From the NCBI RefSeq assembly GCF_009931435.1, contig NZ_CP043414.1: 64,000 nucleotides of DNA. The stretch is one strand, 5' to 3'. Below the pieces are notes generated by a model that saw only the letters and a list, made by a program, of their open reading frames with translations, was not told the origin of the DNA and searched no databases. Origin of the DNA: Escherichia coli (lineage in GTDB: Bacteria; Pseudomonadota; Gammaproteobacteria; Enterobacterales; Enterobacteriaceae). Position numbers and translations under genes: made by a program. This document shows, one piece after another, positions 52,247-55,079 of the stretch (its first letter is position 1; every line of letters starts with the position of its first letter).

Positions 52247-53998
52247 TTATGAGGTTTGTAATAAAGAGAAGGCGTCATCCAATAGAATTTTCTCGCTATT
52301 GTTTATCTCTTTATTTAATAGAAATGATCTCACTGATTTTGCATTACCGATACAAATTTGTTTCGCTTTTCCTGCGAAATATTTCTTATTTATTTCATTG
52401 ATATCAAAAAGTGGATTGTCATTAATTTCGTTTTTTTTATATTCTGCTACGGTAAATAGCATTTGCTCATTATTACCAGATTCATTTCCTAAGAACTTAA
52501 AAATAAGATCTCTATTTCCAATATCTATATCTTCTTTGAATATAGCATCTAACAAAAATGGAAATTTATGGATTGTTTTTCTTTTATTGATTAATTTAAT
52601 AAAGGAAAAATGATAAGCCATGATTATTTTATGTAATTCAACCCCTTGGAAGGGGAAGGATGTAATGGAATAAAGATTTTGATACCTTGGATTATTAGGT
52701 ATTATTATCTTCAAAGCTTTTGCTTTTTCGCTGAAAATAGTTAAAAATTCCTTGTCAATGTTGTTTCGGAGAGAGTTAATTTGTGAATCTGTGAGTAGGT
52801 TGTCAATTTGGGTGTTAAGGTTTGATATTTTTTCGACATAATTAGCTTCTTTAATTTTAATATCATTTAAAATGGTGATATTTGCACGGTGATTAACCCA
52901 ATGGTCAAAGTCAATATTTTCGATTCTCGATTCTTTTAACACCTCATACTCAAGCTTTATTTTTTCACTATCGTGTTTGATCTTTCTTTCAACAGAATTT
53001 AATGATGACGAAACATTTTTAATTTCTTCAGTTATACGTTCTTTTTCTCGTAACGCATCGTTAATATCTTGAGTATAGATATATAATTGTCTAAGATCGC
53101 CGGGTAGCGTTTGTTCGCATACAGGACATGTGTCAACGCTGGGTTTTTGAAGTTTTAAATTTCGAATAGTTTGTAAAAGTACTTTTTGACGCCCACGTAA
53201 CATACTGAGTTTATTGCATAGTTTTTCATAATTAGCTTCTTCCGTAATCAGATTTTCTGCTAATATGTTGTATTTTTTTAAGTAATCAATTGCTTCCCCT
53301 TTGAATCGAGACTCTAATATCTCAGAGATTTTAAGAGAGCTATCTTTTGTTTTGTATTGAATTAATTGCTCTCTTTCATATTCAATTTGTTGTTTTTCTT
53401 TTTGCAACATATATTTTTGCAATCTGTCCGTACGATCTTTTATGCCTGCGTAGTAATCAAGGTAGTCATATTTGAAGTCTTTATAAAATCTATAATCACC
53501 TATTGATTCTCTTAGATAAACCCAACCAACAGATTGAGATATATAGAATGGCAAGAATGCAGCTTCTATCGGTGCATCAGTAAACTTAGTTTGGTTCTGT
53601 AATGTTAGATTAAAGTCAAATAAGTGGTTAAATAATTTTTTGTATCTTGCATATTCATATGAGTTATTTCCATTAATGCCATCAAACCGTAGGGGGACTC
53701 TATCATCAATGCGAACGACGAGAGTATCATCAAATCGAACAAATACAACCGTATGAGATGATTTTACTTTTATTATTTCACACTCAAGACGAAAGAGTAC
53801 TCTTTCTGTAAGAATGTCGTGCAAATTTTCTTTGGAATCATTAACACCCATTGTGTACAAAATTGATTGCATTAATGTACTTTTCCCTGATGTGTTCCTC
53901 CCGTGAATAATATTGACTGAGTCACCAAAATCAGTGCAAAAAAAACCTTTATTATTCATAGAGTATGCTAAAATGCTTTTCAGAATTAATTTAGACAT
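52247..53998 (-). CDS. SMC/Rad50-like ABC ATPase, candidate Lamassu LmuB
   Basis: ORF 52247..54019; Walker A GRNTSGKST near N-terminus, long coiled-coil, central CPVCEQ (CxxC hook-like) motif at 53105-53140; overlaps upstream gene by 8 nt if start is MSKLILKS. Confidence 0.6.
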   Translation of the reverse strand: MSKLILKSILAYSMNNKGFFCTDFGDSVNIIHGRNTSGKSTLMQSILYTMGVNDSKENLHDILTERVLFRLECEIIKVKSSHTVVFVRFDDTLVVRIDDRVPLRFDGINGNNSYEYARYKKLFNHLFDFNLTLQNQTKFTDAPIEAAFLPFYISQSVGWVYLRESIGDYRFYKDFKYDYLDYYAGIKDRTDRLQKYMLQKEKQQIEYEREQLIQYKTKDSSLKISEILESRFKGEAIDYLKKYNILAENLITEEANYEKLCNKLSMLRGRQKVLLQTIRNLKLQKPSVDTCPVCEQTLPGDLRQLYIYTQDINDALREKERITEEIKNVSSSLNSVERKIKHDSEKIKLEYEVLKESRIENIDFDHWVNHRANITILNDIKIKEANYVEKISNLNTQIDNLLTDSQINSLRNNIDKEFLTIFSEKAKALKIIIPNNPRYQNLYSITSFPFQGVELHKIIMAYHFSFIKLINKRKTIHKFPFLLDAIFKEDIDIGNRDLIFKFLGNESGNNEQMLFTVAEYKKNEINDNPLFDINEINKKYFAGKAKQICIGNAKSVRSFLLNKEINNSEKILLDDAFSLLQTS

Positions 53999-55079
53999 AC
54001 ATTCCTCTTGTCTCAACATATGCAGCTATTATCGCAAATGCAATCATGTGTTTTTCTAACCTTGAATTATATGTGTTAATATAAGTTTGATATAATTCAG
54101 TAATACAATCTGCTTCATCTGTATGTTTATAATCTATTTGTGTGTTTTCTGATACAAATTTATAAATCTTTTTGTATTCTACTTGTTGAAAATCTTTAAA
54201 AAAATCGAAACAGTTATCTAATAATTCTTGCGCTCTTCTTTTTATAGGGAGCTTAATTGATAATCCTTTCGCCAATTTATCTGCATGAGAACGCCAAAAG
54301 TTGAAAGCTTTTTTACTTTCTTGGAACATACTGAATGTTGCATCAATTTTTTGTTTGGTCAAACGCTTTGACCTATCTGTAAGTAAAGCATATCCAGCAT
54401 TATTATATGTTAACTCAACATCTTGCAATAAAGCCATTAGAGTTGTTATTACAGCGTCATGATCACTAACCTTACAACCTAGAACCTCAGTAGATAAACC
54501 TGTTAGCGTTCTTCTCCACCCTTTATAAGTTTGAGGAAGGTCAATGAAACTAAATTTTACATTAGAGAGTTGCTTAAAATCTGCAATTTCTCCATCTATT
54601 AGTTTTGATTGAATGTTTTCTTTGATTTCATCATGTAGATCAGAATAATTTTTAGAGATGTTTGTTACTTGTATTTTTTCTACTTTGCATTTTTTACCTT
54701 TTTCTTTCTTACCCTGAAGTATAATATTTCGATTTGTCAAGAAAGATAGAGTGTGTTTGTAATCATCAGATTTGGGGTGTTTATCGTTGATAAGTTCATT
54801 TCCAACAAGCGATATTTTTCCGATGATCTCACAAAATTTTTGATCCGTTTTCCAGTCATCTCTTGATTTTTTAGCTTGATAAGTATCAATGCGACTAATG
54901 TCACCATTTTCATCAACAAAGGCAAAAAGAAAATCTTCATGGTGTTCAACACATATAAAATAATCTAGCAATGGAGAGTTTAGTTTTTCGTAATCATCAA
55001 AAAGAAGGTATACAACACAACAACGTTGGAATGTATATCCTGAGCCTCCCTCAACTCCTGAGTTGACGCTTTCTGACAT
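53991..55079 (-). CDS. Candidate Lamassu LmuA-type effector with N-terminal Cap4-nuclease-like (DUF4297-like) motif
   Basis: 362 aa; N-terminus GGSGYTFQRCCVVYLL...DYFICVEHHEDFLFAFVDENGDISRIDTYQAKK resembles the Cap4/DUF4297 PD-(D/E)xK pattern as recalled; directly upstream of and overlapping the ATPase gene. Confidence 0.5.
   Translation of the reverse strand: MSESVNSGVEGGSGYTFQRCCVVYLLFDDYEKLNSPLLDYFICVEHHEDFLFAFVDENGDISRIDTYQAKKSRDDWKTDQKFCEIIGKISLVGNELINDKHPKSDDYKHTLSFLTNRNIILQGKKEKGKKCKVEKIQVTNISKNYSDLHDEIKENIQSKLIDGEIADFKQLSNVKFSFIDLPQTYKGWRRTLTGLSTEVLGCKVSDHDAVITTLMALLQDVELTYNNAGYALLTDRSKRLTKQKIDATFSMFQESKKAFNFWRSHADKLAKGLSIKLPIKRRAQELLDNCFDFFKDFQQVEYKKIYKFVSENTQIDYKHTDEADCITELYQTYINTYNSRLEKHMIAFAIIAAYVETRGMYV

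Follow-up and report, generated by a model that had tools for sequence, protein, structure and literature searches.

Within a 64,000-nt stretch of Escherichia coli DNA (contig NZ_CP043414.1; the whole analysed stretch is referred to as the window), we identified two overlapping minus-strand genes at positions 52247-55079 that very probably form an intact type I, or "short", Lamassu defence system with a Cap4-nuclease effector. The upstream gene, lmuA (53991..55079, minus strand), is an open reading frame (ORF) for a 362-aa effector, and the downstream gene, lmuB (52247..53998, minus strand), encodes a 583-aa SMC-family ATPase. Both proteins match Lamassu-specific profiles over their full length, and both find their top match in the Protein Data Bank (PDB) in one entry, 9ux7 (chains C and A). 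The family membership of the pair, its architecture, the integrity of its motifs, the selective constraint acting on it, and its genomic context are established here.

A preliminary description of this DNA had placed two overlapping genes at this position, and both ORFs are found where it put them. The frame it took for a 590-aa ATPase is real, but that length, which results from counting from the first in-frame ATG (52247..54019, minus strand), does not hold. The start of lmuB is almost certainly the ATG at 53998, judging by its sequence environment and its relatives, because this ATG overlaps the lmuA stop codon as ATGTCTAA (53991..53998, minus strand, an 8-nt overlap read from the sequence) and is preceded by the Shine-Dalgarno-like sequence GAGGAA, because the PGAP/RefSeq annotation picks the same start in the 98.6%-identical copy of E. 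coli KFu019, because the PADLOC alignment starts at residue 8 of the 590-aa form, and because the Vibrio and Salmonella orthologs share the 8-nt overlap. The overlap, which is identical in Vibrio cholerae and in Salmonella enterica diarizonae (locus positions 6001-6008 in each), suggests that lmuA and lmuB may be translationally coupled. The GC content of the pair is 0.307, compared with ~0.50 in the core flanks, and in KFu019 both genes bear the RefSeq label "hypothetical protein".

The identity of the pair is supported by matches to defence-specific hidden Markov models (HMMs) that lie far outside what chance would give. LmuA matches the PADLOC LmuA model PDLC00244 with an E value of 2.1e-137 (residues 2-361 on model positions 5-365 of 366), and LmuB matches the LmuB model PDLC00250 with an E value of 1.8e-224 and 745 bits (residues 8-589 of the 590-aa form on model positions 2-581 of 582), as well as 15 more PADLOC LmuB models; the comparison with LmuA and LmuB HMMs that had been proposed as a check on the Lamassu assignment thus succeeded over the full length of both proteins. 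An NCBIfam scan of LmuA and LmuB returned nothing above cut-offs. The AlphaFold2 model of LmuA, built from a homolog alignment (mean pLDDT 83.9), predicts an N-terminal Cap4-type dsDNA nuclease domain (about residues 1-180) followed by a helical C-terminal domain (about residues 185-357). When this model was compared with the PDB by Foldseek, the best match was 9ux7_C, the LmuA of a type I LmuAB-DNA complex (E 4e-6, TMt 0.62); another LmuA, 9nxx_D, came next, and after it the Cap4 receptors 6vm5, 6wan, and 6vm6. Across both domains, LmuA is 39% identical to a DUF4297 protein of Bacillus cereus.

To place these matches on the level of residues, we used conservation sets of 29 LmuA and 31 LmuB relatives, which reach down to about 32-40% identity (the LmuB relatives being 40-75% identical). 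The predicted nuclease active-site segment of LmuA, E45-H-H-E-D49 … Q68-A-K70 (54870..54947, minus strand), has the D…QxK form of PD-(D/E)xK-type nucleases, and the N-terminal motif reads in full NSGVEGGSGYTFQ…EHHED…QAK. The triplet Q68-A69-K70 does not vary among the relatives, at least 90% of which also keep each of E45 and D49; in second-tier LmuAs, which are ~15% identical, D49 is invariant and QxK is present as QVK. Together with the Foldseek matches to LmuA and Cap4, the conservation of D…QxK bears out the Cap4-like N-terminal motif noted in the preliminary description. A combined LmuA profile reached the LmuA of Bacillus cellulasensis (BcLmuA, 9ux7_C) marginally, at an E value of 0.043, and aligned only the N-terminal N-x-G…G-F-x-F-Q…E-D-F segment. 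The catalytic lysine is K59 in BcLmuA and K57 in the V. cholerae protein VcLmuA (bioRxiv 10.1101/2025.06.23.660979), and K70 would be its counterpart in the window. A direct Pfam scan of LmuA found neither DUF4297/Cap4_nuclease nor any other match; the Pfam model PF14130 (Cap4_nuclease, formerly DUF4297) is reached by 6 of the 29 LmuA family members, with a best E value of 9e-9, and the LmuA of the window is not among them.

LmuB is a Rad50/SbcC-like SMC-family ATPase, probably of the "short" LmuB class, and its 583 aa fit the ~600 aa of short Lamassu. In its AlphaFold2 model, likewise built from a homolog alignment (mean pLDDT 84.0), a split ABC-type head is combined with two helical arms (residues 190-283 and 302-428) joined by a short hairpin that holds C291-P-V-C294, and the predicted topology of this hairpin is that of a Rad50-type zinc hook. 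The modelled coiled coil is short, ~95 residues per arm, like that of short LmuBs. The best Foldseek match in the PDB is 9ux7_A, a type I LmuB (E 7e-16), followed by the type II LmuBs of Salmonella and Vibrio, by YydD, and by SMC/Rad50 heads. The Walker A motif, the coiled coil, and the central CPVCEQ hook of the preliminary description are all present as sequence motifs, and the structure prediction that it had recommended for the ATPase shows the coiled coil with CPVC in a hairpin.

Under closer inspection, the individual motifs of LmuB are strongly conserved among its relatives. The Walker A P-loop GRNTSGKST (residues 33-41, including K39; 53876..53902, minus strand) aligns with that of the clade of B. 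cellulasensis LmuB (BcLmuB) and fits the prototypical Lamassu form Gx4GK[S/T]; G33, N35, T36, S37, G38, K39, S40, and T41 are invariant, with R34 as the sole exception. The zinc-hook apex, recognized by conservation and by the modelled hairpin, is P286-SVDT-C291-P-V-C294-E-Q-T-L-P299 (53102..53143, minus strand), with the CPVC part of CPVCEQ (C291/C294) at 53117-53128. Its residues P286, D289, C291, C294, Q296, L298, and P299 are invariant, P292 is conserved in at least 90% of the relatives, and the segment sits between helices 235-283 and 302-356 of the model; the Rad50 hook fragments 6zff and 1l8d match the region weakly (E 0.13-0.19). A deviant Walker B motif and D-loop, P-F-L-L-D484-A485-I-F-K-E-D-I-D (52523..52561, minus strand), was located by alignment and in the AlphaFold2 model, where β-strand 481-483 directly precedes D484; P480, F481, D484, A485, K488, E489, D490, and I491 are invariant. 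The conserved K-E-D four residues past the Asp could supply the catalytic carboxylate. Finally, the segment SFPFQGVELH (52631..52660, minus strand), at the start of helix 452-471, resembles a degenerate ABC signature; no variation is seen at F448, P449, G452, V453, L455, or H456, the counterparts of the segment in the alignments are GSDLPRA (second-tier proteins) and SGSGMDK (BcLmuB), and its position suggests that it would be the ABC signature motif.

Sequence profiles also connect the pair to the solved Bacillus system. A direct phmmer search of the PDB found nothing for LmuA or LmuB of the window, for their B. cereus homologs, or for one second-tier LmuA, and a first-tier profile reached just generic Rad50, RecF, and AriA heads, at E values of ~2e-3. 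A profile search of 1.84 billion representative proteins separated two tiers of LmuB: members of a close family scored above 400 bits, and proteins of ~565 aa formed a second tier with scores of 100-140 bits. We refer to the alignment of the window LmuB family as A2 and to that of 28 second-tier proteins as A3. The A3 profile (hmmsearch) matches 9ux7_A, deposited as "Lamassu protein LmuB", over its full length at an E value of 9.6e-53, and HHalign aligns A2 with A3 over 508 columns (probability 100%, E 4.4e-53). Along this chain from A2 through A3 to BcLmuB, Walker A stays in register, the hook reads CPVCEQ in the window, CPTCG in the second tier, and CQYC in BcLmuB (residues 285-288, its described Zn hook; bioRxiv 10.1101/2025.06.23.660979), and Walker B reads PFLLDA, PIVIDSP, and PFCMDS, respectively. 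The type II LmuBs 9hqu_A and 9ny5_D are reached from A3 only at E values of 1e-5 to 1e-6 and only in the N-terminal head/P-loop region, which places the window LmuB clade much closer to the type I lineage. In the profile searches, the window clade finds its nearest relative in the BcLmuB-related second tier and vice versa, and both consist of two-gene systems.

The arrangement of the genes leads to the same class. Type II systems (ABC-3C, DdmABC) carry a short lmuC, whereas a two-gene lmuA-lmuB locus is type I (bioRxiv 10.1101/2025.06.23.660979), which is regarded as a short-Lamassu clade that arose after loss of LmuC (PMC12663957). By its gene content, the locus is a type I, LmuC-less Lamassu and not ABC-3C, so that of the earlier label "Lamassu (ABC-3C)" the first part stands and the second does not. 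The order lmuA then lmuB, in overlapping or abutting frames and with no third gene, recurs in five other loci that all have unrelated flanks, namely, those of V. cholerae, S. enterica diarizonae, a B. cereus megaplasmid, and two second-tier metagenomic loci. Both proteins of the B. cereus megaplasmid pair match PDLC00244/PDLC00250 and are 39% (LmuA) and 38% (LmuB) identical to those of the window. In the V. cholerae loci, lmuB is followed after 113 bp by a conserved 97-aa ORF in the same orientation (locus positions 7859-8152). No PADLOC model matches this ORF, which is missing from the loci of E. coli, Salmonella, and Bacillus and is probably unrelated to the Lamassu system.

Both genes are intact and under purifying selection. 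By the Nei-Gojobori method, lmuA has a dN/dS of 0.08-0.09 against its Salmonella and Vibrio orthologs, while for lmuB the same comparisons give pN values of 0.22-0.29 against a saturated pS of 0.77-0.79. Between the window and KFu019, 21 LmuB residues differ, with 22 non-synonymous and 10 synonymous changes and a dN/dS of about 0.55. Fifteen of these 21 differences fall in the variable coiled-coil arms (residues 210-431), and none affects an invariant or at least 90% conserved position. This divergence could be due to relaxed constraint or to diversifying pressure, for example from phage inhibitors, the counts being too small to decide. The window pair belongs to the subfamily PDLC00244/PDLC00250, which is known in Gammaproteobacteria and some Bacillota and has homologs on large plasmids of Yersinia, B. 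cereus, and Paenibacillus; a search of a phage collection found no homologs.

By homology with the solved LmuAB of B. cellulasensis, a mechanism can be proposed for which the motif set required at each step is present and conserved in the pair. Two LmuBs would dimerize via their antiparallel coiled coils and the CPVC zinc hook, and the helical C-terminal domain of one LmuA would dock near the hook end of the dimer, keeping the nuclease monomeric and inactive. The LmuB heads would bind and hydrolyze ATP via Walker A K39 and the deviant Walker B D484-A485 and would recognize free dsDNA ends or abnormal replication structures of phages or plasmids. Recognition would free LmuA to form a tetramer via its C-terminal domain, and the paired Cap4 domains of this tetramer (D49, Q68-x-K70) would then cut DNA in a sequence-nonspecific manner, such that the infected cell dies or arrests (abortive infection). 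Complex stoichiometry, DNA-end sensing, tetramerization, abortive infection, and protection in E. coli are thereby carried over from the literature on relatives. For BcLmuAB, this literature reports a 1:2 stoichiometry, the Zn hook CQYC, the residues K37 and K59, DNA-end binding, an LmuA tetramer, and defence of E. coli against T1 (bioRxiv 10.1101/2025.06.23.660979). Sequestration and release of LmuA by LmuB is described for Lamassu (bioRxiv 10.1101/2025.06.23.660979; PMC12663957), and protection against phages or plasmids, which in a Lamassu should depend on the ATPase and the effector, has been tested in relatives (bioRxiv 10.1101/2025.06.23.660979; 10.1101/2022.05.11.491447).

The pair is part of a mobile island. 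The window is from E. coli, its smpB-recN flank being 99.5% identical to E. coli genomes, and the pair is cargo at the integrase-proximal end of a ~19-kb low-GC element (~38-57 kb) at the 3' end of ssrA, the tmRNA gene that serves as integration site (57019..57381, minus strand; ARAGORN, and Rfam RF00023 at 296 bits). No direct repeat of the ssrA 3' end was found when one was sought to delimit the island, and its left boundary at ~38 kb is therefore approximate, taken from GC and gene content. A full-length P4/CP4-57-like tyrosine integrase (55625..56854, minus strand; PRK09692, 451 bits) adjoins the ssrA 3' end; with its Pfam domains Arm-DNA-bind_3, Phage_int_M, and Phage_integrase, it is the P4-type neighbour that the preliminary description had pointed to, and the position beside it is indeed a variable one for defence cargo, as detailed below. 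Between it and the pair lies the C-terminal fragment of a second P4-like integrase (55349..55606, minus strand; positions 336-401 of 413 of the NCBIfam PRK09692 model), which by blastn matches the 3' end of the tRNA-Asn-type integrase genes in the KFu019 and E2863 loci at 93% identity and whose equivalent in KFu019 is marked as a pseudogene by PGAP.

On the other side of the pair, a mobilization module (47283..52186) comprises a MobQ relaxase (47283-48764, minus strand; NCBIfam MobQ, 250 bits), a TraD-like gene (49410-49715, plus strand; named after PGAP in the 97%-identical KFu019 module), a type IV pilin with a prepilin domain (50107-50670, plus strand), and the PilV adhesin (50723-52186, plus strand; prepilin domain, PGAP name in KFu019), which is convergent with lmuB. 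The element is an integrative mobilizable element and not a phage satellite. The module thus pairs a major pilin and a PilV tip adhesin with MobQ and the TraD-like gene, and it showed neither pilus-biogenesis genes nor an rci recombinase or shufflon segments; one possible role of the island pilin and PilV would be to decorate the thin pilus of an IncI-type helper plasmid or to give it a new target. KFu019 has the same 6.1-kb module, which runs from the TraD-like gene as far as the integrase fragment (window 49409-55606, KFu019 locus 9413-16008), at 96.9% identity, but there it is found at tRNA-Asn and with another full-length integrase, which suggests from the alignment that the module may have swapped integrase and attachment site by recombination. 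The slot from the pilV stop to the integrase (window 52187-55624, KFu019 locus 12187-15730) corresponds in E. coli E2863 (locus 9298-11213) to a CBASS cyclase (E 2.8e-149) and a 4TM effector split into three ORFs. Since E2863 holds CBASS where the window and KFu019 hold Lamassu, the pilV-integrase interval is an exchangeable defence-cargo slot on a MobQ/PilV island family; ~368 other complete E. coli genomes share the flanks only. This agrees with a published survey that describes the tmRNA locus of E. coli as a defence hotspot and as host to mobilizable elements (PMC10121019). When ten other large ORFs of the low-GC region were screened with PADLOC, no further defence system was found, and the region is for this reason not a multi-system defence island.

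Several features of the surroundings complete the picture. Between the convergent stops of pilV (52186) and lmuB (52247) lies a GC-rich hairpin, AAGGGCC-GATA-GGCCCTT (52222..52239), that is probably a bidirectional terminator by its sequence; a consensus terminator scan did not call it because it is without a T-run. The AT-rich region 5' of lmuA (55080..55348, minus strand) contains a terminator-like hairpin found by the scan (55276-55255), which would shield the pair against read-through from the integrase gene. It also has a perfect TATAAT (55185-55180) about 100 nt 5' of the lmuA ATG, which with a weak -35 element, GTTAGA, at a 17-nt spacing makes a candidate lmuA promoter. Apart from the flanking tmRNA, an Rfam scan of the locus gave just sub-threshold matches that overlap or abut it. 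One of these, at 56951-57028 in the integrase-ssrA intergenic region, resembles the small RNA IsrM (48 bits, against a gathering score of 376) and reaches 10 nt into the 3' end of ssrA; it is probably a conserved attachment-site or island-junction sequence rather than a small RNA gene. Farther left, the low-GC stretch 26792-37396 is ordinary E. coli accessory backbone outside the mobile element, with a ygaQ-like amylase-family ORF, YpjCB, and a 1,553-aa Ag43/AIDA-type autotransporter; the tRNA-Met(CAT) called there by ARAGORN (29605-29680) is probably an ileY-like tRNA-Ile2. The pair of S. enterica diarizonae sits on a related MobA/TraD/ParA island (loci 3964-4658 and 551-1737), with a YafO-PhD toxin-antitoxin pair directly upstream of the Lamassu genes and beside an integrase fragment.

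A number of observations speak against a functional system of the Bacillus kind in this genome. Pfam DUF3732 matches none of the 31 LmuB family members, that of the window included. This domain was reportedly part of LmuB in the original Lamassu definition by Doron and colleagues in 2018. The miss reflects the coverage of the Pfam model and does not exclude membership, because LmuB-specific HMMs and structure agree; among PDB entries, the DUF3732 label sits on type II LmuBs. The search of Pfam for DUF4297 and DUF3732 that the preliminary description had proposed, which gave no direct match to either protein, would accordingly have misled. The pair is just 13% (LmuA) and 18% (LmuB) identical to the solved type I proteins, and direct sequence searches fall short of them; the docking mode, the ATP dependence, and the trigger may therefore differ from those of BcLmuAB. 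The Walker B Asp of LmuB is followed by an invariant Ala (FLLD-A), which is not within the Q/S/T/E set of the hhhhD[Q/S/T/E] motif reported for short LmuBs (PMC12663957), so that ATP hydrolysis by LmuB is not assured, and its ABC signature motif is degenerate. A consensus promoter scan called no site upstream of lmuA. Moreover, the pair is rare in E. coli, being present in 1 of 5,426 complete genomes (KFu019, 98.6% identical), and activity in this host can therefore only be presumed. Given the invariant Asp-Ala Walker B, the degenerate signature, and the CPVC hook, one could imagine that the PDLC00244/PDLC00250 subfamily works differently from Bacillus type I, either as an ATP-binding, essentially non-hydrolyzing sensor or with another trigger that spares the conjugative helper of the island while other plasmids and phages are destroyed, but we consider this rather improbable.

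The family assignment of the pair can be weighed against other explanations of the locus. One would see in the ATPase a housekeeping repair protein of the SbcC/Rad50/RecF/RecN type with an unrelated neighbour, and thus no defence system at all. Pfam detects SMC_N alone in LmuB, over the P-loop (E 7e-6), the PDB profile hits are just the RecF, Rad50, and AriA heads described above (E about 2e-3), and Lamassu is thought to descend from SbcCD (PMC12663957). However, NCBIfam repair equivalogs score 14-24 bits against cut-offs of 300-1000 (Rad50_Halo 14 against 1000), compared with 745 bits over the full length for the LmuB-specific model; the partner is a full-length LmuA and not an Mre11/SbcD-type nuclease, and the pairing is kept across phyla; the coiled coil has the short arms of short LmuBs; and the pair is low-GC island cargo, not core genome, with the genuine recN at 59519-61180. 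The case that the preliminary description had set out as its refutation, a RecF/SbcC-type repair protein with an unrelated partner, is thus not borne out, and the LmuB-specific match, the LmuA partner, and the island context effectively refute it, leaving it scarcely any probability. Almost as implausible is a type II/ABC-3C Lamassu whose LmuC was missed or lies elsewhere, the two genes alone being non-functional. Most Lamassu have LmuC, whose deletion abolishes type II defence (bioRxiv 10.1101/2022.05.11.491447), and the V. cholerae homolog loci do have their conserved downstream 97-aa ORF; but that ORF has no PADLOC match, and the loci of E. coli, Salmonella, and Bacillus lack a counterpart. 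With an overlap of 8 nt, an LmuC gene cannot fit between lmuA and lmuB, none of the small leftover ORFs in or around the pair matches PADLOC models as LmuC, and the closest structural and profile relatives are LmuC-less type I systems, type II LmuBs being reached at E values of just 1e-5 to 1e-6 and in the N-terminal head/P-loop region only. We therefore rejected a hidden LmuC on the grounds of the overlap and the lack of an LmuC-like ORF nearby.

It is also very unlikely that the pair is a decaying, non-functional remnant, although its surroundings are decayed and rearranged, an integrase fragment adjoins it, the CBASS effector at the corresponding position of E2863 is broken up, and LmuB shows the excess of non-synonymous over synonymous changes relative to KFu019 (22 versus 10). 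Against this stand two full-length ORFs without frameshift or stop, which retain all invariant family residues, the placement of the 21 LmuB substitutions (15 in the variable coiled coil and 0 at invariant or at least 90% conserved positions), and the strong purifying selection seen in long-range comparisons; the pseudogene explanation was rejected on the basis of the intact ORFs and residues and of this selection. More weight, although still clearly less than even, must be given to the possibility that the pair is a real Lamassu that chiefly serves inter-element competition, destroying incoming plasmids or rival islands or acting as island addiction, as proposed for DdmABC of V. cholerae. The island that carries the pair is mobilizable and needs conjugative helpers (MobQ, TraD-like, PilV), the Salmonella copy stands beside a YafO/PhD toxin-antitoxin pair on a related island, no homolog was found in the phage collection, and Lamassu ranks third in frequency among the complete defence systems of oriT-bearing integrative elements and has been linked to plasmid rarity (bioRxiv 10.64898/2026.01.13.699239). 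On the other hand, the closest characterized type I system defends against phage T1 (bioRxiv 10.1101/2025.06.23.660979), a helper-dependent element would suffer from indiscriminate anti-plasmid activity, and homologs are themselves found on large plasmids. Phage defence and inter-element competition are not mutually exclusive.

Taken as an intact type I Lamassu, the locus is of value mainly for annotation: what RefSeq labels "hypothetical protein", and in which Pfam misses the defining domains, is a complete and selectively maintained system. Defence-specific HMMs already recognize this subfamily, which is of a known and structurally characterized kind, and in this respect the pair opens no new question. 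Were its mechanism or role to differ as considered above, the divergent subfamily would be an uncharacterized functional type I variant for competition between mobile elements. In addition, the island offers a clean example of a swappable slot between pilV and integrase, in a module found at two attachment sites (ssrA and tRNA-Asn).

Among known systems, the pair has likenesses to the DNA-end repair ATPases Rad50/SbcC (Mre11-Rad50, SbcCD), for which a shared ancestry with Lamassu has been proposed (PMC12663957). The ABC-type split head, the antiparallel coiled coil, and the CxxC zinc hook are common to both, and head and hook fragments match weakly, whereas Rad50/SbcC proteins have far longer coiled coils, canonical Walker B and signature motifs, an Mre11/SbcD nuclease partner instead of a Cap4 effector, and a place in the core genome instead of in island cargo. 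The Cap4 proteins of CBASS (6vm5, 6wan, 6vm6) share the nuclease fold and the active-site type with the N-terminal domain of LmuA (Foldseek probability 1.0, E 2e-3 to 3e-2); they are activated by cyclic oligonucleotides via a SAVED domain, where the LmuA of the window has a helical C-terminal domain that, by homology, would bind LmuB. The type II systems DdmABC of V. cholerae and LmuACB of S. enterica (PDB 9uxh, 9nyg, 9hqu, 9hqx) follow the same logic, in which an LmuB dimer sequesters a Cap4-nuclease LmuA, and their folds are matched by the window LmuB at E values of 2e-12 to 3e-8 and by the window LmuA at 9e-4 to 0.2. They need LmuC/DdmB, however, and have an LmuB of about 630-660 aa that carries DUF3732, neither of which is found in the window pair, and VcLmuB is without a zinc hook (PMC12663957), unlike the LmuB described here. 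For both proteins, the best structural match is the type I LmuAB of B. cellulasensis NIO-1130 (9ux7/9ux8; Doron et al. 2018; "clade S" of Haudiquet et al.). The two systems agree in the order lmuA then lmuB without LmuC, in an LmuA composed of a Cap4 domain and a helical C-terminal domain, and in an LmuB of about 560-585 aa with Walker A, a single apical CxxC hook, and a deviant Walker B. They differ in sequence (13%/18% identity for LmuA/LmuB), in the hook (CPVC in the window, CQYC in B. cellulasensis), in Walker B (D-A versus D-S), and in the signature-like segment (QGVELH versus SGSGMD). The window pair belongs to a subfamily distinct from B. cellulasensis LmuAB, and as an E. coli-native pair whose sequence lies far from the Bacillus prototype, it provides a comparison point for the solved structure.

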